Source: an uncultured Gammaproteobacteria bacterium (GTDB taxonomy: Bacteria > Patescibacteriota > Patescibacteriia > UBA1558 > UBA10009). From it: 64,000 nt of DNA. Of the stretch, positions 8,664 through 61,916 are shown one piece after another. Where the stretch lies: NCBI GenBank assembly GCA_964588165.1, contig CAZPMS010000001.1:164722-228721 (forward strand), written 5' to 3'. A program made the translations under genes and the position numbers. A model generated the notes under the pieces. It did not search any database. It was given only the letters and a program-made list of their open reading frames with translations, and was not told where the DNA came from. Within the stretch, counting starts at the first letter, position 1, and each line of letters begins with the position of its first letter.

Positions 8664-8679
8664 ATGGCACTAATAACCC

Positions 8680-8790
8680 ACCGATCTATCACTGATGAAG
8701 CGCTGATTAATCACTGATATTAATATCGGTGAGCCATCTGTGATATATCCGTGATAGCTCAGCGTATATCCGTGATTTATCCGTGGTACT
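8680..8790. repeat. Interspersed palindromic repeat element, copy A (inverted relative to copies B and C)
   Basis: Reverse complement of 8680-8765 is near-identical to 13270-13352 (gagctatcac(a/g)gatata...ctcaccgatattaatatcagtgattaatcagcgcttcatcagtgatagatcggtgg). The internal palindromes caccgat/atcggtg, tgattaatca and atattaatat, and three ~10-bp tatccgtgat sub-repeats, are all seen directly in the sequence. Confidence 0.8.
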
Positions 8791-8863
8791 TTAATTCATT
8801 TTAGCAATAAAACACTAATCTGACTATTACTTAAAAGACCCGCCGATGAGGCGGGCCTCCTTA

Positions 8864-10646: not shown

Positions 10647-11087
10647 TTGGAGTTACAAATGATCAAGAAATTGATAGTCAGCCTTGGCTGCCTAATACTC
10701 GTTGGCCTGCTGGTAAGCCTTTTTTTCGGCTCACAAATAGAAGGAATGTATAAATTTGTAACTACTTGCTATAGCTACTTTGACGCCGAAATGCAAACCG
10801 TAATAAATGACATGGTAATCTTTGGCGCCTCAATAGCATTAATATTTGCGGCAGTAATGGCATTTATTGGTAAAATGATTAAAGGAATTATCCCTCTTGG
10901 CTACTTTTTGATTTCGACAGCCATGATATGTTTCTCTTCTGTGTTTTTAAAAGTACCCGGAGGTTCGCTGGTGATGGTCGTACTTTTGGCCTCCTTTGGT
11001 ATTTCCAGTGTTATTTCCTTCTTATTGTTCTACCTAATATTTAGAACAATACCCAAACATAAACACCAATTATTCTACCCCGCTTGA
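10647..11087 (+). CDS. Small integral membrane protein (4 predicted TM), paralog 1 of a tandem family
   Basis: 146 aa, four hydrophobic segments, C-terminal KHKHQ...P motif shared with paralogs 2 and 3; followed by a hairpin terminator. Confidence 0.5.
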   Translation: MELQMIKKLIVSLGCLILVGLLVSLFFGSQIEGMYKFVTTCYSYFDAEMQTVINDMVIFGASIALIFAAVMAFIGKMIKGIIPLGYFLISTAMICFSSVFLKVPGGSLVMVVLLASFGISSVISFLLFYLIFRTIPKHKHQLFYPA

Positions 11088-11195
11088 AACAAAACGGGGT
11101 TTTTTCTTTGTTAAATAATTGACAAAATAATCAATTATAAACTAATATACTATATAAGCATAGAACATTCACAAGATAGATAAGGAGAAGTAAAG

Positions 11196-11636
11196 ATGAG
11201 GAAACAATGGTTTAAATTCGCCTTCGTCCTTGGGATACTGGTTATAATCGGATACTTTGTGTTCTCTCCAGTCATGGAGTGGTACAATGGTTTCAGTCAA
11301 TACAAACAAACATCTGCAATTCTTATCTTAACCTCTGCGTGTATTTCTGGCTTGATCATGGGTATAATCGTCGGCCTGAACACTAAGCAAAGTGAATTCT
11401 TAAAACCTGATAAATTGATTGCTAAACTTTTTATCTGGGAAGTGTTCGGTCTTGCGATTAGCTTTATTATTATTACTGGTTTTCTTTTTTTTGTAGATCG
11501 GATTAGCGGAGCTATTGAAATAGATATTATTCACATTTCCAGCTTTTCCATTATCTACTTAACCACTTCCTCCCTGGTCTATTTGATTAAGGAAACAATG
11601 TCAAAACATCACCAACCAATACTTGACCCTGTCTGA
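11196..11636 (+). CDS. Small integral membrane protein, paralog 2
   Basis: 146 aa, same architecture, C-terminal SKHHQPILDPV. GGAGAAG RBS. Its upstream roughly 100-bp promoter/UTR is near-identical to that of paralog 3. Confidence 0.5.
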   Translation: MRKQWFKFAFVLGILVIIGYFVFSPVMEWYNGFSQYKQTSAILILTSACISGLIMGIIVGLNTKQSEFLKPDKLIAKLFIWEVFGLAISFIIITGFLFFVDRISGAIEIDIIHISSFSIIYLTTSSLVYLIKETMSKHHQPILDPV

Positions 11637-11771
11637 TCTTTTCTATCCACAAATCCCCCCGTTTGGAAATTCAAGCGGGGTTTTTTCTTTGTTAAATAAT
11701 TGACAATATAAATTTTTTATAGTTAACTATCAATATAGAACATTCACAAACGTAGTGAGAAGGAGAAAACC

Positions 11772-12191
11772 ATGTTGATCAAATGGATTATCTACTTAGC
11801 TAGCCTTTTTGCTTTATTCCTATTCAAAGATCCCATATCATCTTTTGTAATAGATTCGTATGGTGATCTTAATCAAGTAGAACAAAAATTCATAACTGAT
11901 GGTTTTATATTTTGTGCGATCATTGGCATATTTAGTGCTACACTCACCGGTTTAGCACTTATTAAACCTCTAATTGATGTAAAAAGATGCCTTTATGCTG
12001 GAATAATACTGGGCTTAATATTTGGCTTCAGCCTTGGCATGACTTTTATCTCGTCCAAACAAAGCTTTAATATTGGTTTAACCGCTGGTTCAATATATCT
12101 TATAAGCCATTTAATTATTTTCTTCTCTATTTATTTAATAAATGAAACGGTAAAACACTATCGCCATAAGGCCCAGCCATTCCTAGTCTGA
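11772..12191 (+). CDS. Small integral membrane protein, paralog 3
   Basis: 139 aa, C-terminal VKHYRHKAQPFLV; AGGAGAA RBS; own promoter and terminator. Confidence 0.5.
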   Translation: MLIKWIIYLASLFALFLFKDPISSFVIDSYGDLNQVEQKFITDGFIFCAIIGIFSATLTGLALIKPLIDVKRCLYAGIILGLIFGFSLGMTFISSKQSFNIGLTAGSIYLISHLIIFFSIYLINETVKHYRHKAQPFLV

Positions 12192-12285
12192 AAGCAGTTC
12201 TATCCACTTACAACACCCTAAGTTATACAAAACTTGGGGGTTTTTCTTTTTAAAAAAATTAAATAAGTGATATAATGAATTTTGT

Positions 12286-12681
12286 ATGAAACAATCTTTT
12301 TGGCAAAATTTGCCCATTTTAAGATTTTTAGCCGGCTTTTGGGGCTGGGTTACCATGCTCCTGTTTATTGTTGATTTTTTTAGCCACCATCTGCTTTCTG
12401 AAGGTATAACTACGGCAGCTGTAATTTATGGCGCTATTTTAGCTATGTACGCAGGCTCTAAAGAATACAAGCGTTGGCAACAAAAAAAGAACTATAAATC
12501 CGACCATTTTGGTGAACTATATATTATTACCTGGACCCTGGTAATGGTAATCTTTGTGGCTTTAACCTTTTTACTTAGCGGTTACTACAAAATCCCCGGT
12601 GAATTTCCAGCTGTTTATTTAACAGTTTTATCAGTTTTTATCCTTTCCAGGGAATCCAAATCATTTATTGCTAAAAGTTAA
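12286..12681 (+). CDS. Small integral membrane protein, a divergent fourth member of the array
   Basis: 131 aa, 3-4 TM segments, preceded by a hairpin plus T-run terminator of the previous unit. Confidence 0.4.
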   Translation: MKQSFWQNLPILRFLAGFWGWVTMLLFIVDFFSHHLLSEGITTAAVIYGAILAMYAGSKEYKRWQQKKNYKSDHFGELYIITWTLVMVIFVALTFLLSGYYKIPGEFPAVYLTVLSVFILSRESKSFIAKS

Positions 12682-12690
12682 TTATCAATA

Positions 12691-12765
12691 GCTCACCGAT
12701 ATTAATATCAGTGATTAATCAGCGCTTCATCAGTGATAGATCGGTGGTTTATCAGTGACTATAGT
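12691..12765. repeat. Interspersed palindromic repeat element, copy B (direct with copy C)
   Basis: gctcaccgatattaatatcagtgattaatcagcgcttcatcagtgatagatcggtggtttatcagt, identical over about 70 bp to 13290-13358. Confidence 0.8.
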
Positions 12766-12821
12766 TTGACTCATAGTAAATAATTGATTAAAATCAAATA
12801 AATAATTAATCAAAAGCGATT

Positions 12822-13247
12822 ATGATGTCTAAAAACAAGCCTCTTTTTTTGTTGGAGGAAAAATTAACTTACAAATTAAGAGGGATTTTTATTGAAATTA
12901 GTAAACAACATGGTTGTTTATTTAAAGAAAAGGTCTATCAAAAAATAATTATTGATGAATTTCAAAATAAAAACGTTAAATTTGAATCCCAGCCAAGAAT
13001 TTCTATATATAACTTAATTACAGGTAAAGAAATTGGTTACTATTCCCCAGATTTTCTAGTAGAAAATAAAGTAATTGTCGAAATAAAAGCTCAGGGTCAA
13101 ATCTATAATAGTCATATTAATCAACTGATTAAATACTTAAATTCTACAAAATTTGAAATTGGACTAATAGTGAACTTCGGAACTCCAATGGTTCAAATTA
13201 TTAGAAAAATATTTACAAACGACAAAAAATCATTTATTCACAAATAA
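12822..13247 (+). CDS. GxxExxY-family / PD-(D/E)XK nuclease-like small protein
   Basis: HGCLFKEKVYQK (G..E..Y-like) motif plus PDFLVENKVIVEIKA (D...E.K) typical of the GxxExxY PD-(D/E)XK family. 141 aa. Flanked by direct repeat copies B and C. Confidence 0.5.
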   Translation: MMSKNKPLFLLEEKLTYKLRGIFIEISKQHGCLFKEKVYQKIIIDEFQNKNVKFESQPRISIYNLITGKEIGYYSPDFLVENKVIVEIKAQGQIYNSHINQLIKYLNSTKFEIGLIVNFGTPMVQIIRKIFTNDKKSFIHK

Positions 13248-13358
13248 ATCACAGATATTCACGGAGCTATCACAGATATACCACAGATGGCTCACCGATA
13301 TTAATATCAGTGATTAATCAGCGCTTCATCAGTGATAGATCGGTGGTTTATCAGTAGT
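13247..13358. repeat. Interspersed palindromic repeat element, copy C. It includes three atcacagata sub-repeats and lies just 5' of the rpmE promoter.
   Basis: Sequence identity to copy B and to the reverse complement of copy A. A TTGACA-17-TAGAAT promoter for rpmE follows at about 13355-13385. Confidence 0.8.
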
Positions 13359-13399
13359 TACTTGACAAAAAATACTATTTAAACTAGAATGTAAGCCAT

Positions 13400-13708
13400 A
13401 TGAAAAAAGAAATCCATCCAGAATACCATAAAGATGCCAACATAAAATGTGCTTGTGGCAATGTTTTTAAGGTTGGTTCAACCCAAAAAGAAATAGAAGT
13501 GGAAATCTGTTCTGCTTGCCATCCTTTTTATACTGGCAAACAAAAATTGGTTGATACGGCCGGTATGGTTGATAAATTTAAAGCCAGGGCCGCTAAGCAA
13601 GAAAAAGTTGCTTCCAGCAGAAAAGGCAAAAAAGTTAAAAAAGCCAAAGCCAAGGCGAAAAAAGACGCTGACGCCAAAGCTTCTGACAAAAAAAAGGATA
13701 AAAAATAA
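13400..13708 (+). CDS. rpmE: 50S ribosomal protein L31 (Zn-ribbon type) with a Lys/Ala-rich C-terminal extension
   Basis: [10 protein letters not shown]...CACGN...[13 protein letters not shown] matches L31. The tail [23 protein letters not shown] is an extension. Confidence 0.9.
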
Positions 13709-26694: not shown

Positions 26695-26768
26695 AACAAC
26701 CTCCGGTTAAAAAATTCTATTTCGCGAGTTTTTTAGAATACCATATCTTAAAATCTTTGTCAATATTA

Positions 26769-27165
26769 TTGCTTTTCATTCAAAAATAATCTATAATTAT
26801 ACTTACCTAAATGATTGAGTAGTTTACCAACCTGCGTCCCGATGTTCGCTAACAGCGAAATCGGGTCCGAGGACTCCGATGAGTCTCGGACTCCATCGGA
26901 GATCCCGACTTTACATCGGGACTAAGTTTAGGTGACAATTTAAATAAGAGGGTTGATATTTTATCAAAAAATCTTTTAATCAACTAATCTTCCTATCTTT
27001 GATTTTTCAATGGAAGACTAAATGACTAAAAGATTAAATGATTATATTAAGAATTAGTATGATAATTATCAATCAAGTCAGGTGGAACCGCGGAAAGTTT
27101 ATACTTAAACCTTTCGTCCTGAGAATATCAAAATTGGTATTTTAAGGATGAGGGGTTTTTAAATT
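26769..27165 (+). promoter_or_regulatory. T-box riboswitch leader of thrS. Components: a TTGCTT-17-TATAAT promoter at 26769-26797, a GC-rich multi-hairpin Stem I candidate at 26836-26922, the T-box sequence at 27078-27093, and a terminator hairpin plus U5 at 27110-27160.
   Basis: Seen directly: ucAGGUGGAACCGCGG fits the conserved T-box motif AGGGUGGNACCGCGG. The downstream CCUUUCGUCCU...AGGAUGAGGGG helix (GU wobbles allowed) followed by UUUUU is an alternative terminator. The roughly 430-nt leader directly precedes thrS, a classic T-box-regulated gene. Confidence 0.55.
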
Positions 27166-27234
27166 GATTATTAATGAATGATGACTGATGATTAGCAATT
27201 AATCATTGATCATCAATTATTAATTTTTAACATT

Positions 27235-29043
27235 ATGAAAAATAATACACAAATAGAAAATCAAGCTCAGCTAGAAAAAGTCAGGCACTCCATATCTCAT
27301 TTAATGAGCATGGCGATAATTGAACTTTATCCTAAAACCGGCCTTGGCGTCGGACCTTTTATTGAAAATGGTTTTTATCAAGACTATGATTTGTCTGAAC
27401 CAATTTCTGAAGAAATCCTGCCCAAGCTGGAAAAAAGAATCAAAGAGTTAATTAAACAAGATATTAAATTTGAACAGCATGCCATGGATTTTAAAGAAGC
27501 CTTAAAAGAATATAAACATGATCCGTATAAAACTGAGATGATTGAAAATTTAAAAAAAGACGGAGAAAAAAACGTAAGTTTTTATAAATCCGATTGGTTT
27601 GAAAATTTATGCAAAGGCCCCCACGTAAAATCTACCAAAGAAATTGACCCCAGGGCTTTTAAACTTACCTCCATTGCAGGAGCTTATTGGCGTGGTGATG
27701 AAAAAAATAAAATGCTTACCCGAATTTACGGTGTTGCCTTTGAATCAAAAAATAAACTTAATGACTATTTAAAAATGGTAGAAGAAGCCAAAAAACGCGA
27801 CCACCGGAAAATCGGCAAAGATCTGGATTTATTCACTTTTTCCGAAACTGTAGGTAAAGGCTTGCCACTCTGGACCGAAAAAGGCGCCGTTATAAAACGC
27901 GAACTGGAAAATTTTATAATAAACGAAGAATTAAAACGCGGCTATAAACATGTAGTAACTCCAGATATGGCCAGGGTGGCTCTTTATAAAAAATCAGGCC
28001 ACTATCCTTACTATAAAGATTCCATGTATCCGCCAATTAAACTGGATGAAGAAGAATTCATGCTAAGGCCCATGGCTTGTCCTCACCATTTTGAGCTTTA
28101 TTTAAGCAAACCCCGCAGTTACCGCGATCTGCCACTTAGAATCGCCGAGTTGGCTAAGCTATACCGTTACGAAAAATCTGGTGAACTGACCGGCCTAATG
28201 AGAGTAAGAAATTTCTGTTTGGCTGATTCGCATATAATTTGCGCAGATAGCAAACAGGCCAAAGACGAAATAAATAATGTTTTAAATTTAATAGAATATG
28301 TGGCCGGAGTTTTTGGACTAAAATCAGGCAAAGATTATTCTTACAGATTTTCTTTAGGTGATAGAAAAAATGATAAAAAATATTACAAAGATAATAAAGC
28401 TTGGGATAGCGCCGAAAAAAACCTTAAAGCTGTTTTAGATAAAAGAAAAAGTAAATATGTAATAGCTCCAGATGAAGCGGCCTTTTACGGCCCTAAGGTT
28501 GATATCCAGATGAAAAACGTCATGGGCAAGGAAGACACCGCCTTTACTGTACAGTACGATTTTGTAATGCCAAAAAGATTCAACCTAACCTATACCAATA
28601 AAAAGGGAGATAATCAGGAGGCTATTGTTATCCACCGCTCTTCTATTGGCGCCATAGAAAGAAGCGTAGCCTTTTTAATTGAACATTTTGCCGGCAACTT
28701 CCCGTTATGGCTCTGCCCTATCCAAGTTAAAATAATTTCGGTTGGCTCGGACCATAAAAAGTTCTGCCAGAAATTAGCTAATAAATTAATAGCAGAAGGC
28801 TTGCGCGTAGAAACTGACTTGATAAATGAAACTGTTGGTAAAAAAATCAGAAATGCTTCTAAAGAAAAAATTCCTTACACCTTGGTAATTGGTGATAAAG
28901 AACTAAAATCCCTGCCTGCTGGCAGGCAAGGTGATAAGTTGGCTGTAAGAGTTAGGGGCGAAGAAAAACTATTGGAAATTGATTATGCTAAATTCGTTAA
29001 GAAGCTAAAGAAACTGATATCTGAAAAATCTCTTGGATTATGA
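27235..29043 (+). CDS. thrS: Threonyl-tRNA synthetase
   Basis: Class II aaRS motifs (FRNFCLADSH, HRSSIGAIER), anticodon-binding C-terminus; 602 aa, so a short form lacking part of the N-terminal extension. Confidence 0.95.
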   Translation: MKNNTQIENQAQLEKVRHSISHLMSMAIIELYPKTGLGVGPFIENGFYQDYDLSEPISEEILPKLEKRIKELIKQDIKFEQHAMDFKEALKEYKHDPYKTEMIENLKKDGEKNVSFYKSDWFENLCKGPHVKSTKEIDPRAFKLTSIAGAYWRGDEKNKMLTRIYGVAFESKNKLNDYLKMVEEAKKRDHRKIGKDLDLFTFSETVGKGLPLWTEKGAVIKRELENFIINEELKRGYKHVVTPDMARVALYKKSGHYPYYKDSMYPPIKLDEEEFMLRPMACPHHFELYLSKPRSYRDLPLRIAELAKLYRYEKSGELTGLMRVRNFCLADSHIICADSKQAKDEINNVLNLIEYVAGVFGLKSGKDYSYRFSLGDRKNDKKYYKDNKAWDSAEKNLKAVLDKRKSKYVIAPDEAAFYGPKVDIQMKNVMGKEDTAFTVQYDFVMPKRFNLTYTNKKGDNQEAIVIHRSSIGAIERSVAFLIEHFAGNFPLWLCPIQVKIISVGSDHKKFCQKLANKLIAEGLRVETDLINETVGKKIRNASKEKIPYTLVIGDKELKSLPAGRQGDKLAVRVRGEEKLLEIDYAKFVKKLKKLISEKSLGL

Positions 29044-40192: not shown

Positions 40193-40714
40193 ATGAAAAA
40201 TTTCTCCCACATCGTGGCCCTAGACCAAAAACACGGTATTGGCATAAACAATAAAATGCCTTGGCTAATTAAAGCCGATTTTAAATTTTTTACAGATACT
40301 ACCACCGGTAATAATCCTGATAAAAATAATGTGGTTATAATGGGACGCAAAACCTGGGATTCAATTCCTAAACATCATCAGCCGTTATCAAACCGGCTAA
40401 ATGTTGTTTTATCCAGGCAAAAAAACCTGGATCTGCCTAAAGGTGTTTTGCATTATACTTCTTTTGACCAAGCTCTTGAAGAACTGGCCAAAAATGATAA
40501 TATTGGTGAAGTTTTTAATATCGGCGGCGGCAAACTTTATGCCGAAACCATTAACCATCCAAACTGCAACAAATTATATATCACAAAAATTGAACGGACT
40601 TTTAACTGTGATACATTTTATCCGCCTATACCAAGTAAGTTTAAAAAAGTTGAAGAAAGTAAAATTTTTGAAGAAAACAATATTAAATTTAAGTTTGTAG
40701 TTTATAAAAGGTAA
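40193..40714 (+). CDS. folA: Dihydrofolate reductase
   Basis: IVALDQKHGIGINNKMPW...VIMGRKTWDSIP matches the DHFR signature. Confidence 0.9.
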   Translation: MKNFSHIVALDQKHGIGINNKMPWLIKADFKFFTDTTTGNNPDKNNVVIMGRKTWDSIPKHHQPLSNRLNVVLSRQKNLDLPKGVLHYTSFDQALEELAKNDNIGEVFNIGGGKLYAETINHPNCNKLYITKIERTFNCDTFYPPIPSKFKKVEESKIFEENNIKFKFVVYKR

Positions 40715-40737
40715 GGTTAATATAAAATACTTGTTAA

Positions 40738-40768
40738 GCCGACGGTTTTACACCGTCGGTTCTTTTTT
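40738..40768 (+). terminator. Intrinsic terminator of folA (gccgacggtttt aca ccgtcgg + T6)
   Basis: 8-bp GC-rich stem followed by TTCTTTTTT. Confidence 0.7.
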
Positions 40769-40794
40769 ACAAAAATAAATTATAAAAAAGACAA

Positions 40795-41140
40795 GCCCGC
40801 AACTTTTCTTTGGATGACCAGGGGGTTATCCATTGAAGTTTGCGGGCTTTTTTGCTGCTTATAGGCGCTGTGTGTCACTTGTTATTAGAAGTAGCCTCCT
40901 CGTGAGGCACATGTGATGTCACACAGAACTTAATGAACCTGTTCGCAGCAACTGCAGCGCTTCCTGACTTTCTCAGCCCCGTAGAGTTCCTCTCCTAAGG
41001 AGAGGTTCTGATTGTCGGTGGAACTTTTGGCCATTGAGGCGGTACAGGCTTTTGCCTGTAAAAGTGTGGAAGCTGCTCGGAAATAAATAATTCCATAGAG
41101 ACGTATGATTCGTCTCTTAAATAAGCAATATAATGATCGG
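40795..41140 (-). ncRNA. Candidate ncRNA transcription unit A, minus strand, about 350 nt. It has a TTGACA-16-TATAGT promoter at 41148-41180 and a nested hairpin plus U-run terminator at 40790-40855.
   Basis: No ORF of 60 aa or more in any frame. GC well above background. Multiple local hairpins (cctctcc/ggagagg, acaggc/gcctgt, agagacg/cgtctct). Identity unknown; no tmRNA or RNase P signatures were seen by eye. Confidence 0.35.
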
Positions 41141-41196
41141 GGATATTTACTATAGCATACTTAAATTATTTGTCAACCCTTTATTTTAAGTAAAAA

Positions 41197-41770
41197 AAGA
41201 CCGCCGTTTTTCCTAAGAAAAACGGCGGCTTCGCGGGCTGGCTGGTATACCGTACTTTTGGCCACGTCGCCTCTAATGGGCGGCGAAATGCCTGTATCGG
41301 CTACCTGTTGTGTATCGGCTGTGTGCCGAATTTGCGATCTTTGCCGATCCGATTTCCGGAACTTTCGCCAGGATTGTGCTTTCCCTGGCGGATAGATCGC
41401 TGTAAACCAGCATCGCTGTTGTACTTGCCGTCACTGTTTTAACGGCTCCCTTTCTGGCCTAGTTCCACTAACGTTTTCGTCATTGTCATAAATGACAAAT
41501 CATTGATAACGCAGTGACTTCTGGCAATTTGCGGTTGAACGCCTACGCGTTTTTTTCATGGATTTAACCATGTGCCAACAGTGACAACTACCGGTGTTCA
41601 TCCGGTCAGAAGAGGATCAACGCCTTTTCTGAATGTTCCGGAACGATGATTGGAAAGCATAGCTCTCCCGTCTCGATTTCGCACTCCCTAAGGAGTGGTA
41701 CCCAAACGTCCTTCGCGGACTGGGATTTTCAAATAACAATATTGCAGTGTATCACAATATTAAAATATTG
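41197..41770 (-). ncRNA. Candidate ncRNA transcription unit B, minus strand, about 550 nt. It has a TTGACA-17-TACACT promoter at about 41765-41795 and a 12-bp-stem terminator (gccgccgttttt/aaaaacggcggc + U-run) at 41197-41240.
   Basis: ORF-free, GC-elevated and hairpin-dense (gtcc-gcgaa-ggac, cactcc-ttag-ggagtg, ccagg...cctgg, aacgc-gtag-gcgtt). Might alternatively be a structured 3' UTR of the kinase gene. Confidence 0.3.
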
Positions 41771-41831
41771 TCAAGGGCTAATTTATGAATAAATATTACT
41801 TTTGCCTAATATTAGCCAAATTTAATTAATT

Positions 41832-42392
41832 CTATTCTTTAATTTCAGCTAATATTTCTTCAACCTTTTTATATAAATCATCCAAAGATCCATCGTTATT
41901 AAAAATGAATTTTGCCTCGTTGGCCACCTCCTCAATAAGGCTTTCTGCCTCTGCTGACTCATTTTTTTGGAATTGTTCAAAAGTCAACTCATCCTTTCCC
42001 TCCCCGGGATTCTGGCCACGGCCCATTATACGTTCATATCTTAATTTTTGATCAGCCTCTACACTAATTAAATAAAAATTTTTCAGCTTCTTTAAAAATT
42101 CTATATCTTTCGGCCTTCTAACTCCATCCACGCAAACTATCTTAGCTTGGGAGTTCTCAGCGTCTTTGGCTAAAACTTTGGCTAAAACTTCCTGCCCCAA
42201 AGCTTCACGTAATCCTTGAGAAACCTGTTGAAGATTTTCTCTGGAATGTGGCAAATAAAATCTATCTAAAACATCTCTTAGGGGTTTAGAAAAACCAAAA
42301 ATCTCTGCCTGATAATTTTCTACCAAATATTTACAAAAGGTAGTTTTTCCAGAACCAATTTTACCAACAAAACCAAAAATTATTTTATTCAT
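41832..42392 (-). CDS. P-loop nucleoside-monophosphate kinase-like protein (dNMP kinase / dephospho-CoA-kinase fold)
   Basis: Walker A GKIGSGKTT; 186 aa; immediately downstream of dCMP deaminase with a 1-nt gap. Confidence 0.45.
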   Translation of the reverse strand: MNKIIFGFVGKIGSGKTTFCKYLVENYQAEIFGFSKPLRDVLDRFYLPHSRENLQQVSQGLREALGQEVLAKVLAKDAENSQAKIVCVDGVRRPKDIEFLKKLKNFYLISVEADQKLRYERIMGRGQNPGEGKDELTFEQFQKNESAEAESLIEEVANEAKFIFNNDGSLDDLYKKVEEILAEIKE

Positions 42393-42909: not shown

Positions 42910-42972
42910 ATTTAAAAAAATTAATAATAAATATTTGCTATTTTAGCAAAAATAAAATTTTAAAACAACTTG

Positions 42973-43263
42973 TTAGTTAGCCGAAATTCTGGTTCCACCG
43001 CCTTTGCCGACTTTCCTTACGCCCGCCCTATAACTCATAGAACCAGAATCATAAGTTTGAGTGTCTCGGACTAATTTCCGCTGCCTGTTTCTCGCTGCTT
43101 CTTTTGGATAGGTTTTTTTAACATCAGCTTTACGAACCAATTCACTATTAACAACCTCCTCTGCCTCCTTTAACATTTGTCTATATTTTCTTACTGGCAT
43201 ATTGGCAGCAGCAGCCAGTTCCTGGATTGAAGGCTCCTCATTTTTTACAGTTTCGTATCCCAT
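42973..43263 (-). CDS. Hypothetical small basic protein, possibly helix-turn-helix
   Basis: 96 aa; the IQELAAAANMPVRKYRQMLKEAE region looks HTH-like; low confidence. Confidence 0.3.
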   Translation of the reverse strand: MGYETVKNEEPSIQELAAAANMPVRKYRQMLKEAEEVVNSELVRKADVKKTYPKEAARNRQRKLVRDTQTYDSGSMSYRAGVRKVGKGGGTRISAN

Positions 43264-43427
43264 ATTTTTTAAATTAATTATAGGCTTAGCTTAGCAAAAT
43301 TAATAATTTTAGACAAATCAAAAACCCATCATTTTTTTATAATGAAAATATTCATTTTAAAGTCTTGATCTATTTCCTAAAATATGCTATTATATGGCAT
43401 TAACGTAAATTCAAAAAGGAGGCAGAT

Positions 43428-43670
43428 GTGTATCCCCTTTCGGTTGTTGAGCACGTTTTTAAAATAGTAACCGCGCTTGATAATAGCCGAGAAGTGTACT
43501 GGGCCGTTATGACCTTATTCCAGGTTCAGGCCTTTTACCAACACGCGAAGTTTATCAAATTAGAAAAATCAAACAATCGGGGCTTTATTTCCTTTAAACA
43601 TACTTTTGAATTTAGAGGGAAAACAATCATTACCAGAACCCATTGCGGGTTAACAAAAATAAACCAGTGA
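43428..43670 (+). CDS. Hypothetical protein (GTG start)
   Basis: 80-aa ORF with an AAGGAGG Shine-Dalgarno 7 nt upstream of the GTG. Confidence 0.35.
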   Translation: MYPLSVVEHVFKIVTALDNSREVYWAVMTLFQVQAFYQHAKFIKLEKSNNRGFISFKHTFEFRGKTIITRTHCGLTKINQ

Positions 43671-43708
43671 GTAAGCTCGCTGGTTTTTCATTTAAAAAAT
43701 CTTACACT

Positions 43709-43795
43709 TTCGTCATTCCGAGCAAGGCCGAGGAATCCCGTAATTAATATCGTACATAAGTAATGGGATCCTTCGACTCCGCTCAGGATGACAAG
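43709..43795. repeat. Long imperfect palindrome, family GTCATTSYGAG (copy 2)
   Basis: cgtcattccgagc...gaggaatcccgt | aatgggatccttcg...ctcaggatgaca. The arms are conserved with copy 1 while the central loop differs. Confidence 0.7.
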
Positions 43796-43824
43796 TTGGG
43801 AGTAAGATTTTTTTATTTAGAGAA

Positions 43825-48033: not shown

Positions 48034-48065
48034 ATAAAGAACAAACGTAATAAAAAAATATTAGA

Positions 48066-48095
48066 TTATAATTAAATTTTTGTCAAATAAAAAAG
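48066..48095 (-). promoter_or_regulatory. Putative promoter of the tRNA cluster (minus strand: TTGACA-17-TAATAT); duplicated at 48549-48582
   Basis: The reverse complement of tataattaaatttttgtcaaataaaaaag gives TTGACA ... TAATAT. An approximately 30-bp near-identical copy lies upstream of the 130-aa gene. Confidence 0.45.
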
Positions 48096-57149: not shown

Positions 57150-57197
57150 GTTTTAAAATTGTGACGGTATAAAACCGTCACCTTAACGGTTTATAAA

Positions 57198-57626
57198 TTA
57201 TTTAACCTGCTGTTCAGCCGACGGTTTTATACCGTCGGGTTGACCACCGGTATCTCTCTTCAACGATATTATTAAAAATTCTACAAAAGTTACCAAAGCA
57301 ACTAACAAAATAGTGTTAAACCAGCTAAGTAATTTATTGGCCTGCAAAAAAAACGAGCCGGTAATAACTATTGAAAAAAATATTGCCTGCCGAAAAGAAA
57401 TTTGCACGCCTTCGGCCTTGGTATATCTTCTGGTAAAAATAAATCTTAAAAAATAACTCATTAGCGCCAGCGTGCCCACTAGGGCAAAAAATAAACTGGC
57501 GTAGAATAAAAAGAATCCCAAAAAATTTGTAGATTCCGGATTAACTAAAAACAATACTAAAAGCCATCCTCCCCAGCACAAAATAGTACATGTTACCATT
57601 AGCCATAAATACTGTTTTATTGTCAT
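57198..57626 (-). CDS. Hypothetical 4-TM membrane protein
   Basis: 142 aa; the 3' end of the ORF contains the hairpin gccgacggttttataccgtcggg, near-identical to the folA terminator. Confidence 0.4.
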   Translation of the reverse strand: MTIKQYLWLMVTCTILCWGGWLLVLFLVNPESTNFLGFFLFYASLFFALVGTLALMSYFLRFIFTRRYTKAEGVQISFRQAIFFSIVITGSFFLQANKLLSWFNTILLVALVTFVEFLIISLKRDTGGQPDGIKPSAEQQVK

Positions 57627-61623: not shown

Positions 61624-61684
61624 ATCGTCAATCTAGCTTTCCAACTCCGGACACCAGTCTGGAGTTTTTCTTTATATTGACATA

Positions 61685-61881
61685 TTGACAAAAAAAGCAT
61701 AATCATTTAATATGGCCTTATAATCGTAATTTTGGGACAGGCCGTTGCTAAGTAAACGGTTTACTCGGCAAGCTAGCTATTATTGCTTCCAATGGCCTGT
61801 CCTCGTTTTTCCCCCACGGCATGGGACAAAAGTCTCATGCCACCCCTGATCCCGCTTCTACAGTTGAGGCGGGATTTTTTT
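61685..61881 (+). ncRNA. Candidate stand-alone sRNA, about 160 nt. It has a TTGACA-17-TAATAT promoter at 61685-61713 and an intrinsic terminator (cccgc...gcggg + U7) at 61851-61881.
   Basis: Two strong internal helices (gggacaggcc...ggcctgtcc enclosing about 65 nt, and ggcatg...catgcc); GC-rich; no + strand coding gene downstream. Confidence 0.4.
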
Positions 61882-61916
61882 GTTTAAAAAAACGCCTCTT
61901 TTTTTAAAAGAGACGT

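Follow-up and report, generated by a model that had tools for sequence, protein, structure and literature searches.

We lean towards the view that a block of about 1.1 kb at positions 40715-41831 of the DNA analyzed here (the window, 64,000 nt of contig CAZPMS010000001.1) consists of two unrelated, tandem and independently transcribed structured non-coding RNA (ncRNA) genes, named units A and B, which lie on the minus strand and serve the host. The block extends from the stop codon of folA to the stop codon of a P-loop kinase gene. Its two-unit anatomy, its lack of a coding signal, its fold signal, its strand, its lack of a match to any known RNA family and its restriction to one lineage were observed directly. 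At a clearly lower level of confidence, it is possible that each unit founds a new class of large structured ncRNA of which it is as yet the sole member, expressed from a promoter of tRNA strength in a species of the Paceibacteria of the Candidate Phyla Radiation (CPR).

Two promoter-terminator pairs in tandem

Promoters and terminators were located by a consensus scan, with the exception of the unit B terminator, which was absent from the scan because its loop exceeded 8 nt and was located by folding. The elements found between the two stop codons were the following:

41775..41831, minus strand: AT-rich spacer of 57 nt from the kinase stop codon to the -35 of unit A, with no minus-strand terminator
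41774..41746, minus strand: promoter of unit A, TTGACA-17-TACACT with a TG-extended -10, 10/12 match; inferred transcription start site (TSS) at about 41739
41739..41192, minus strand: unit A, a predicted RNA of about 545 nt, delimited from promoter to terminator and folded
41229..41192, minus strand: terminator of unit A, a stem of 12-13 bp including the perfect 12 bp CCGCCGUUUUUC/GAAAAACGGCGG, a UUAG loop and U7 at 41198-41192; P=1.00
41176..41149, minus strand: promoter of unit B, TTGACA-16-TATAGT with a TG-extended -10, 11/12 match; inferred TSS at about 41142
41142..40785, minus strand: unit B, a predicted RNA of about 355 nt, delimited from promoter to terminator and folded
40849..40784, minus strand: terminator of unit B, a 10-bp outer stem (40849-40840/40802-40793) around an inner hairpin, followed by GUC and U6 (40789-40784); the helix of the maximum expected accuracy structure has P=0.91
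40736..40761, plus strand: intrinsic terminator of folA, a 10-bp stem and a T-run, outside units A and B

The two promoter-terminator pairs were co-oriented and did not overlap, and unit B (TSS at about 41142) began 16 nt past the U-tract of unit A. The arrangement generally taken to mark an RNA gene, a sigma-70 promoter and an intrinsic terminator on one strand with non-coding DNA between them, was therefore present twice. Most of these elements had already been read by eye in a preliminary description of this DNA, which placed a minus-strand TTGACA-16-TATAGT promoter near 41150-41180, a 12-bp stem with a U-run at 41197-41240 (found here at 41229..41200 and followed by U7) and a nested hairpin with U6 at 40790-40855 (recovered by folding at 40793-40849); the units of about 350 and 550 nt that it proposed were close to the sizes obtained. 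The TTGACA-17-TACACT promoter that it set near 41765-41795 does exist, at a position about 20 nt further to the left.

Perfect TTGACA hexamers combined with a TG-extended -10 occurred at only three sites on the two strands of the 64-kb window, and two of the three were the promoters of units A and B. In the window, the tRNA operon has the promoter TTGACA-17-TAATAT (48086..48058), and the promoter type of both units is therefore native to the organism. The raw count of promoter-like sites in the block (7, versus 4.6±2.1 in shuffled sequences) was not significant alone; the significance of these promoters lies in their quality, their shared orientation and their pairing with terminators, rather than in their number.

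The unit A terminator was found on the minus strand only. The hairpin of the unit B terminator is followed by T6 on the plus strand too, and this terminator may be active in both directions. Since the 57-nt spacer contains no terminator, transcription of the dCMP-deaminase/kinase operon probably continues into unit A, and the unit A terminator probably also ends this operon, which has none of its own. The block had previously been proposed as a possible 3' untranslated region of the same operon. The likely read-through, with no terminator ahead of unit A, speaks for this proposal, and the near-consensus promoter that unit A has of its own speaks against it.

The folA terminator hairpin (AGCCGACGGTTTTACACCGTCGG) was found again in near-identical form (26/28 nt) at 57211-57238, with a related hairpin beside that copy at 57163-57187. 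These folA-type hairpins (40736-40761, 57163-57238) look like a repeated terminator or an element of the genome resembling repetitive extragenic palindromes (REP).

Coding potential and composition of the block

The genes that flank the block are:

40193-40714, plus strand: folA (DHFR_1)
41832-42392, minus strand: P-loop kinase (AAA_18/AAA_17, weak DNMK)

No open reading frame (ORF) overlapping 40715-41831 was longer than 53 aa in any frame, and each frame held 13-23 stop codons, which bears out the earlier description of the block as ORF-free. The period-3 power of the block was 0.47, versus 5.6-8.8 in the flanking genes, and no small ORF with a convincing ribosome-binding site was found within it. 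Searches for protein remnants, which had been named beforehand as a sign of a pseudogene, were equally negative. No remnant of the neighbor genes of relatives, including the dUTPase and the IS110 transposase, was detected in the block by tblastn; 1,098 aa of stop-free pieces from its six frames gave no match at E<=10 in a word-seeded search of 5.8 billion proteins; and the longest open piece had no match among 1.84 billion cluster representatives in an exhaustive HMMER scan. This lack of protein similarity in any frame, together with the lack of codon periodicity, speaks against a pseudogene, and a decayed gene is very unlikely.

Neither tandem repeats, iterons nor terminal inverted repeats were present in the block, and no second copy of it was found in about 82 kb of the genome, made up of the window and a further 18 kb. 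The absence of terminal inverted repeats, the single copy in about 82 kb and the lack of a transposase remnant speak against an insertion sequence (IS) or a miniature inverted-repeat transposable element (MITE), and the decayed mobile element put forward as a candidate in the preliminary description found no support.

The GC content of the block was 0.432 overall, versus 0.358 for the coding DNA of the window. Most of the other intergenic regions of at least 150 nt had values of 0.22-0.32, and four others of 0.355-0.41. The 200-nt maximum of the block, 0.56 at 41222-41421, was exceeded in the window only by the tRNA cluster (0.565). The GC content had been described as far above the local background, and these values agree with that description.

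The flanking genes were intact, with full-length Pfam matches, and thyA, tmk and the dCMP deaminase gene lie close to the block. The window further contains the cellular genes for DnaE, GyrB, PheT, ThrRS, GatB, L1/L11, FtsW and DUF5671. The named homologues of the P-loop kinase are annotated as Paceibacterota/Parcubacteria, and the host therefore belongs to the CPR.

Predicted folds and strand

Unit A was predicted to fold into three 5' hairpins, a large central domain, a 3' domain (RNA positions 434-495) and the terminator. The central domain is closed by UCCGGAAC/GUUCCGGA (RNA positions 97-104/377-384) and includes a 15-bp long-range helix (RNA positions 151-165/293-312). The predicted fold of unit B comprises two 5' hairpins, a multibranch domain of 115 nt (RNA positions 69-183), a domain of 100 nt (191-290) and the terminator; its long-range helices are 69-82/170-183 and 216-229/264-274.

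The fold energies of the whole units lay far below those of shuffled sequences (z=-6.7 for unit A and z=-7.3 for unit B). The signal persisted in the cores without terminators (z=-4.8 and z=-5.7, respectively); local helices had been noticed in the units earlier by eye. Three coding controls gave z-scores from -0.2 to +0.5, and the tRNA cluster gave z=-3.3. The normalized ensemble diversity was 0.10 in unit A (shuffles, 0.229±0.046) and 0.115 in unit B (shuffles, 0.235±0.053); 0/25 shuffles reached values as low as those of the units, and the coding controls did not differ from their own shuffles.

On the minus strand, 44-47% of the unpaired positions were A, and the loops of the plus strand would be U-rich. 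An excess of A at unpaired positions is the usual bias of structured RNAs. The units were assigned to the minus strand because of these A-rich unpaired positions and the promoter and terminator signals. The sequences are thus shaped as RNA genes: their promoter-terminator pairing, their tRNA-like GC content, their defined folds and their A-rich loops are unlike neutral or junk DNA.

Comparison with known RNA families

When the whole window was searched against Rfam 15 (4,227 families) at gathering scores, only three tRNAs at 47.8-48.0 kb were detected. The block and each core were also searched separately at E<=10 with the laxest filters, and only terminator-like noise was obtained. As a positive control, the search in E-value mode recovered a sub-threshold T-box upstream of thrS (25 bits, E=0.0014), so divergent CPR versions of known families are visible to it. 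This T-box match, at 26990-27124, compares with a gathering score of 93 and lies in the leader of thrS (27235-29043), an AT-rich stretch of 540 nt at 26695-27234 on the plus strand with z=-8.8. The leader is probably a divergent T-box riboswitch of a CPR threonyl-tRNA synthetase gene.

None of the known classes of large RNA was supported by its tests. ARAGORN at default settings found no transfer-messenger RNA (tmRNA) and at relaxed settings made low-quality calls only, one of which, a 'tRNA-Thr' inside unit B, was discarded for its poor fold; with no Rfam match, and no T-arm/acceptor pair with CCA seen by eye, tmRNA was rejected. RNase P RNA was rejected because no RNaseP_bact_a, RNaseP_bact_b or other model matched at E<=10 and no correctly ordered P4 pairing was present: the nearest P4-like motif, GAAAGUUCCGG, pairs upstream and not downstream, the wrong topology for RNase P. 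The signal recognition particle (SRP) RNA lacked both an Rfam match and a GNRA-capped domain IV. For 6S RNA there was again no Rfam match, and both folds are multibranched, whereas 6S RNA is a long rod with a central bubble. The preliminary description had been unable to match tmRNA, RNase P, SRP, 6S or group II signatures, and the searches with Rfam at E<=10 and ARAGORN confirm this.

It had also named an OLE/ROOL/GOLLD-like RNA as a candidate and suggested a cmscan run against Rfam, which did not bear the candidate out: there was no covariance-model match to OLE, ROOL, GOLLD, raiA or HEARO (which we take to be RF01071, RF03087, RF01998, RF03072 and RF02033, respectively), either at the gathering score or at E<=10. 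The neighborhood of the block, with folA, thyA, tmk, the P-loop kinase and the dCMP deaminase and with the nearest tRNAs 6 kb away, gave no indication of OLE, ROOL or GOLLD either. No ORF follows unit A or unit B on the minus strand, and therefore neither can be a cis-acting leader, which removes riboswitches, T-boxes and ribosomal leaders. Group I and group II introns were rejected since no Rfam match was obtained and the flanking genes are uninterrupted. Units A and B themselves are neither paralogues (alignment z=1.3) nor a pairing duo (complementarity z=0.7).

Distribution among strains and relatives

Contigs of the same species were gathered by exact-protein look-ups from several metagenomes; the samples with this organism include ENA ERZ23499079, ERZ23498905 and ERZ23499059, JGI 3300009374, 3300009375, 3300009405 and 3300009106, and SRA SRR8062331 and SRR9166048. 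The block was identical in all of the contigs, at least 13 from different metagenomes, with the exception of one substitution in L010. Relatives were considered syntenic when the order L1 / dCMP deaminase / kinase / folA / thyA / tmk / gatB was kept, and they showed the following arrangements at the site of the block:

L027/28 (kinase 74% identical): 51 nt from the kinase gene to a convergent folA-like gene; no block
L015-18 (kinase 70% identical): 38 nt between kinase and folA, with one bidirectional terminator hairpin; no block
L019-22 (kinase 61% identical): kinase and folA overlap by 4 nt; no block
L023-26 (kinase 58% identical): a dUTPase gene between kinase and folA; no block

In one of these relatives (L020, 61% kinase identity), an IS110-family transposase gene at 441-1466 lies directly upstream of the kinase. 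With this insertion and the dUTPase gene of another relative, the borders of the nucleotide-metabolism cluster look like an insertion hot spot.

Homologues were then sought at the nucleotide level. A blastn search of the block against phage and plasmid collections found none. Six-seed pseudo-translation scans with both units were just as negative in collections of viruses, species-representative genomes and metagenomes. The seeds of both units matched nothing in 185,579 species genomes, and patterns exact in the loops and reduced to purine/pyrimidine (R/Y) in the stems had 0 matches. These large-collection scans were sensitive to roughly at least 85% identity over 24-nt seeds; they did not recover the source species itself, which is therefore not in those collections. 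An nhmmer search was likewise negative in the loci of relatives (59 kb), in the remainder of the window and in the 18 kb of extra same-genome sequence, and a literature search for large or unusual RNAs in CPR/Patescibacteria gave nothing relevant.

A proposed model and its alternatives

According to the model that we favor, each unit would be driven separately by its near-consensus sigma-70 promoter with extended -10 and ended by its own intrinsic terminator. The pair would have been gained at a site where, in relatives, only one bidirectional terminator hairpin separates kinase from folA, two convergent genes, and unit A would double as the 3' end of the kinase operon. Both units would be transcribed in vivo into stable folded RNAs, which we suggest work in trans to the benefit of the host. 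Long, densely helical and with A-rich loops, such RNAs are more likely to bind proteins or to serve as scaffolds than to base-pair through a short seed.

Several observations weigh against two functional RNA genes. The plus strand folds as well as the minus strand, and several ordinary intergenic regions with terminators and palindromes also reach z-scores from -4 to -7.6; the z-scores alone are therefore not distinctive of the block, and what distinguishes it is its length, its GC content and its promoter-terminator pairing. No GNRA or UNCG tetraloop on a stem of at least 4 bp was found in units A and B, which is unusual for large tertiary-folded RNAs and argues against a classic 'ornate' tertiary architecture. 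Strain divergence was 0.1-0.6%, too low for showing purifying selection, and since none of the searches run found a homologue, there was neither covariation nor evidence of selection. If the block was acquired recently, its signals would still be intact even with RNAs of no use to the host.

Finally, the block was missing from every syntenic relative examined (kinase 58-74% identical), which makes it a gain or insertion specific to the lineage of this species. The preliminary description had proposed to check whether related genomes keep the block between folA and the kinase gene, and had counted its absence from them as pointing to a random junk insertion; it was absent from all of them. We do not think that this absence makes the block junk, since the pairing of promoters with terminators and the fold signal cannot arise by drift.

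The alternative that survives best, although we consider it rather unlikely, is that of a relic of foreign DNA: two RNA genes that evolved in a donor (a plasmid, a phage or another bacterium) would have entered the terminator spacer through illegitimate recombination or natural transformation and would be carried without function, their structure and signals being genuine but inherited. The species-specific occurrence of the block at a site where relatives have only a terminator hairpin, the lack of a homologue in the host clade, a GC content well over the host background and a second orphan insertion 1 kb away, with an orphan ORF of 96 aa, are what such a capture would leave behind. However, no donor sequence was found in the phage, plasmid, viral, genome and metagenome collections, and the promoters match those of the host in type and strength. 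The high GC content is equally expected from the constraint of RNA structure, as the host tRNAs have 53-63% GC. Moreover, in streamlined CPR genomes 1.1 kb of useless DNA should be short-lived.

It is improbable that unit A, unit B or both are an extremely divergent housekeeping RNA (RNase P RNA, tmRNA, SRP RNA or 6S RNA) moved to this locus. Their sizes of 355 and 545 nt and their tRNA-like promoter strength would fit a stable housekeeping RNA; rnpB, ssrA, ffs and ssrS were not seen in the about 82 kb of genome scanned; and such genes are non-syntenic between CPR species, so that absence at this site in relatives would be unremarkable. Nevertheless, Rfam gave no match at E<=10 with the laxest filters even though the same search recovered the thrS T-box, ARAGORN produced no tmRNA and at relaxed settings only noise, and inspection by eye revealed no T-arm/acceptor with CCA, no correctly ordered P4 and no GNRA-capped SRP domain IV. 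The lack of any match to the seeds of both units in the species genomes also argues against a housekeeping RNA.

Slightly less probable still is an element acting at the level of DNA, such as what is left of an origin of replication or transfer, a rolling-circle single-strand origin or a cluster of protein-binding palindromes, whose hairpins would act in DNA. The strand symmetry of the fold energy is consistent with such an element, as are the perfect palindromes TTGTCATTTATGACAA and TTCCGGAAC, the latter present twice, 280 nt apart. However, no gene for Rep, a relaxase, an integrase or partition lies beside the block, iterons and tandem repeats are absent, and the two promoter-terminator pairs and the strand-specific excess of unpaired A would be left unexplained.

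The least credible explanation, already close to refuted, is that a protein-coding gene or a mobile element (an IS or a MITE, for example) has decayed here. The block is an insertion relative to the relatives, one of which (L020) has an IS110 transposase beside the kinase and another a dUTPase at the junction. However, it has 13-23 stops per frame and shows no period-3 signal, no tblastn remnant and no relative among the 5.8 billion proteins or the 1.84 billion cluster representatives; terminal inverted repeats are absent, and neither the window nor the 18 kb of same-genome sequence contains a second copy.

Other features of the window

A third self-contained RNA-gene candidate was found on the plus strand at 61685-61881, within the convergent intergenic region 61624-61916. 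Its promoter, TTGACA-17-TAATAT at 61685-61713, is followed by about 160 nt of structured sequence (41% GC) and by a terminator, CCCGCTTCTACAGTTGAGGCGGG with T7 (61851-61881); the z-score of the intergenic region was -7.6 on the plus strand. For this candidate, Rfam gave no match at E<=1 beyond noise.

A second species-specific insertion lies 1 kb from the block, at 42910-43824, where about 900 nt separate rplA from the dCMP deaminase gene, compared with about 100 nt in relatives. It carries an orphan 96-aa ORF (42973-43263, minus strand) with a helix-turn-helix resembling sigma-70 region 3, and an 80-aa ORF on the plus strand. The 96-aa ORF had no homologue among the 5.8 billion proteins and so gave no guide to related loci. 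Downstream of rplA, at 43712-43792, an imperfect palindrome, GTCATCCTGAGCGGAGTCGAAGGATC...GGATTCCTCGGCCTTGCTCGGAATGAC on the minus strand, was observed in an intergenic region (43671-43824) with z=-5.4; this palindrome presumably resembles a repeat element widespread in environmental bacteria.

The intergenic region 8664-8863 (41% GC, z=-4.3 to -5.3) contains the 9-mers ATCACTGAT and ATCCGTGAT, each twice, as well as ATCCGTGGT and ATCTGTGAT, and has a terminator at its end. These 9-mers, which we take to be loosely similar to DnaA boxes, may form an array of protein-binding sites. Six tandem ORFs of 102-146 aa occupy 10647-13708 on the plus strand, with spacers of 94-152 nt, several of which have TTGACA-type promoters; for the homologues of these ORFs called in L033, no Pfam matches are on record. 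The stretch 462-1784 is not a second large gap: its lack of a listed ORF is due solely to its being the 3' portion of a histidine-kinase gene of 919 aa (HisKA_7TM/GAF/HATPase), which continues beyond the left edge of the window.

Significance and comparison with known systems

Very few bacterial ncRNAs of more than 300 nt are known, and RNase P RNA, tmRNA, OLE, ROOL and GOLLD are each biochemically remarkable. To our knowledge, the RNA repertoire of the CPR, with its minimal genomes, is essentially unexplored. If units A and B do found new classes, they would be among the first large stand-alone ncRNAs described for the CPR, and would exemplify a large RNA gene that was gained recently or moves horizontally. 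If they are expressed and functional, reduced organisms would still acquire and keep large structured RNAs, and two new folds would be available for structural study. Their apparent restriction to one uncultivated species stands in the way of comparative validation, the usual route to function, and they could equally be passengers that came from a donor.

Islands of high GC between the genes of an AT-rich genome are the signature used by screens of GC-rich intergenic regions (GC-IGR) for stand-alone large ncRNAs (PMC11109978). Like OLE, ROOL, GOLLD and raiA, the units are long, stand alone with their own promoter and terminator, lie in a GC-rich island, are densely helical and have no obvious target gene. 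They differ from these RNAs in giving no covariance-model match, in having no GNRA tetraloops and in being confined to one species, whereas those families are clade-wide. With 350-550 nt versus about 610 for OLE and about 580 for ROOL, they resemble OLE and ROOL, which are rare 'giant' bacterial RNAs, in size class only; it is unit A that reaches the size range of these two. The gene for the OLE-associated protein (OAP) is missing beside the block, which is flanked by thyA, folA, the kinase and the dCMP deaminase. ROOL and GOLLD are reported to occur in a phage and tRNA context, which the block lacks.

The units are like the housekeeping RNAs in size range, in their strong tRNA-like promoters and intrinsic terminators and in lying in the gap between convergent genes, but every family test was negative and the units showed no recognizable conserved core motif. 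The trans-acting small RNAs (sRNAs) of horizontally acquired islets, such as those borne by prophages and islands of enterobacteria, are likewise species-restricted, self-contained intergenic units with no homologues in close relatives. The units are, however, 2-5 times longer than typical base-pairing sRNAs (50-250 nt), have no mobile-element genes adjacent to them and contain no identified seed region of the Hfq or ProQ type. Cis-regulatory leaders such as riboswitches and T-boxes are also structured, elevated in GC and closed by an intrinsic terminator, but unit A is followed by the promoter of unit B, and unit B by the 3' end of the convergent folA. If functional, units A and B would thus be new RNA classes of a known general kind.

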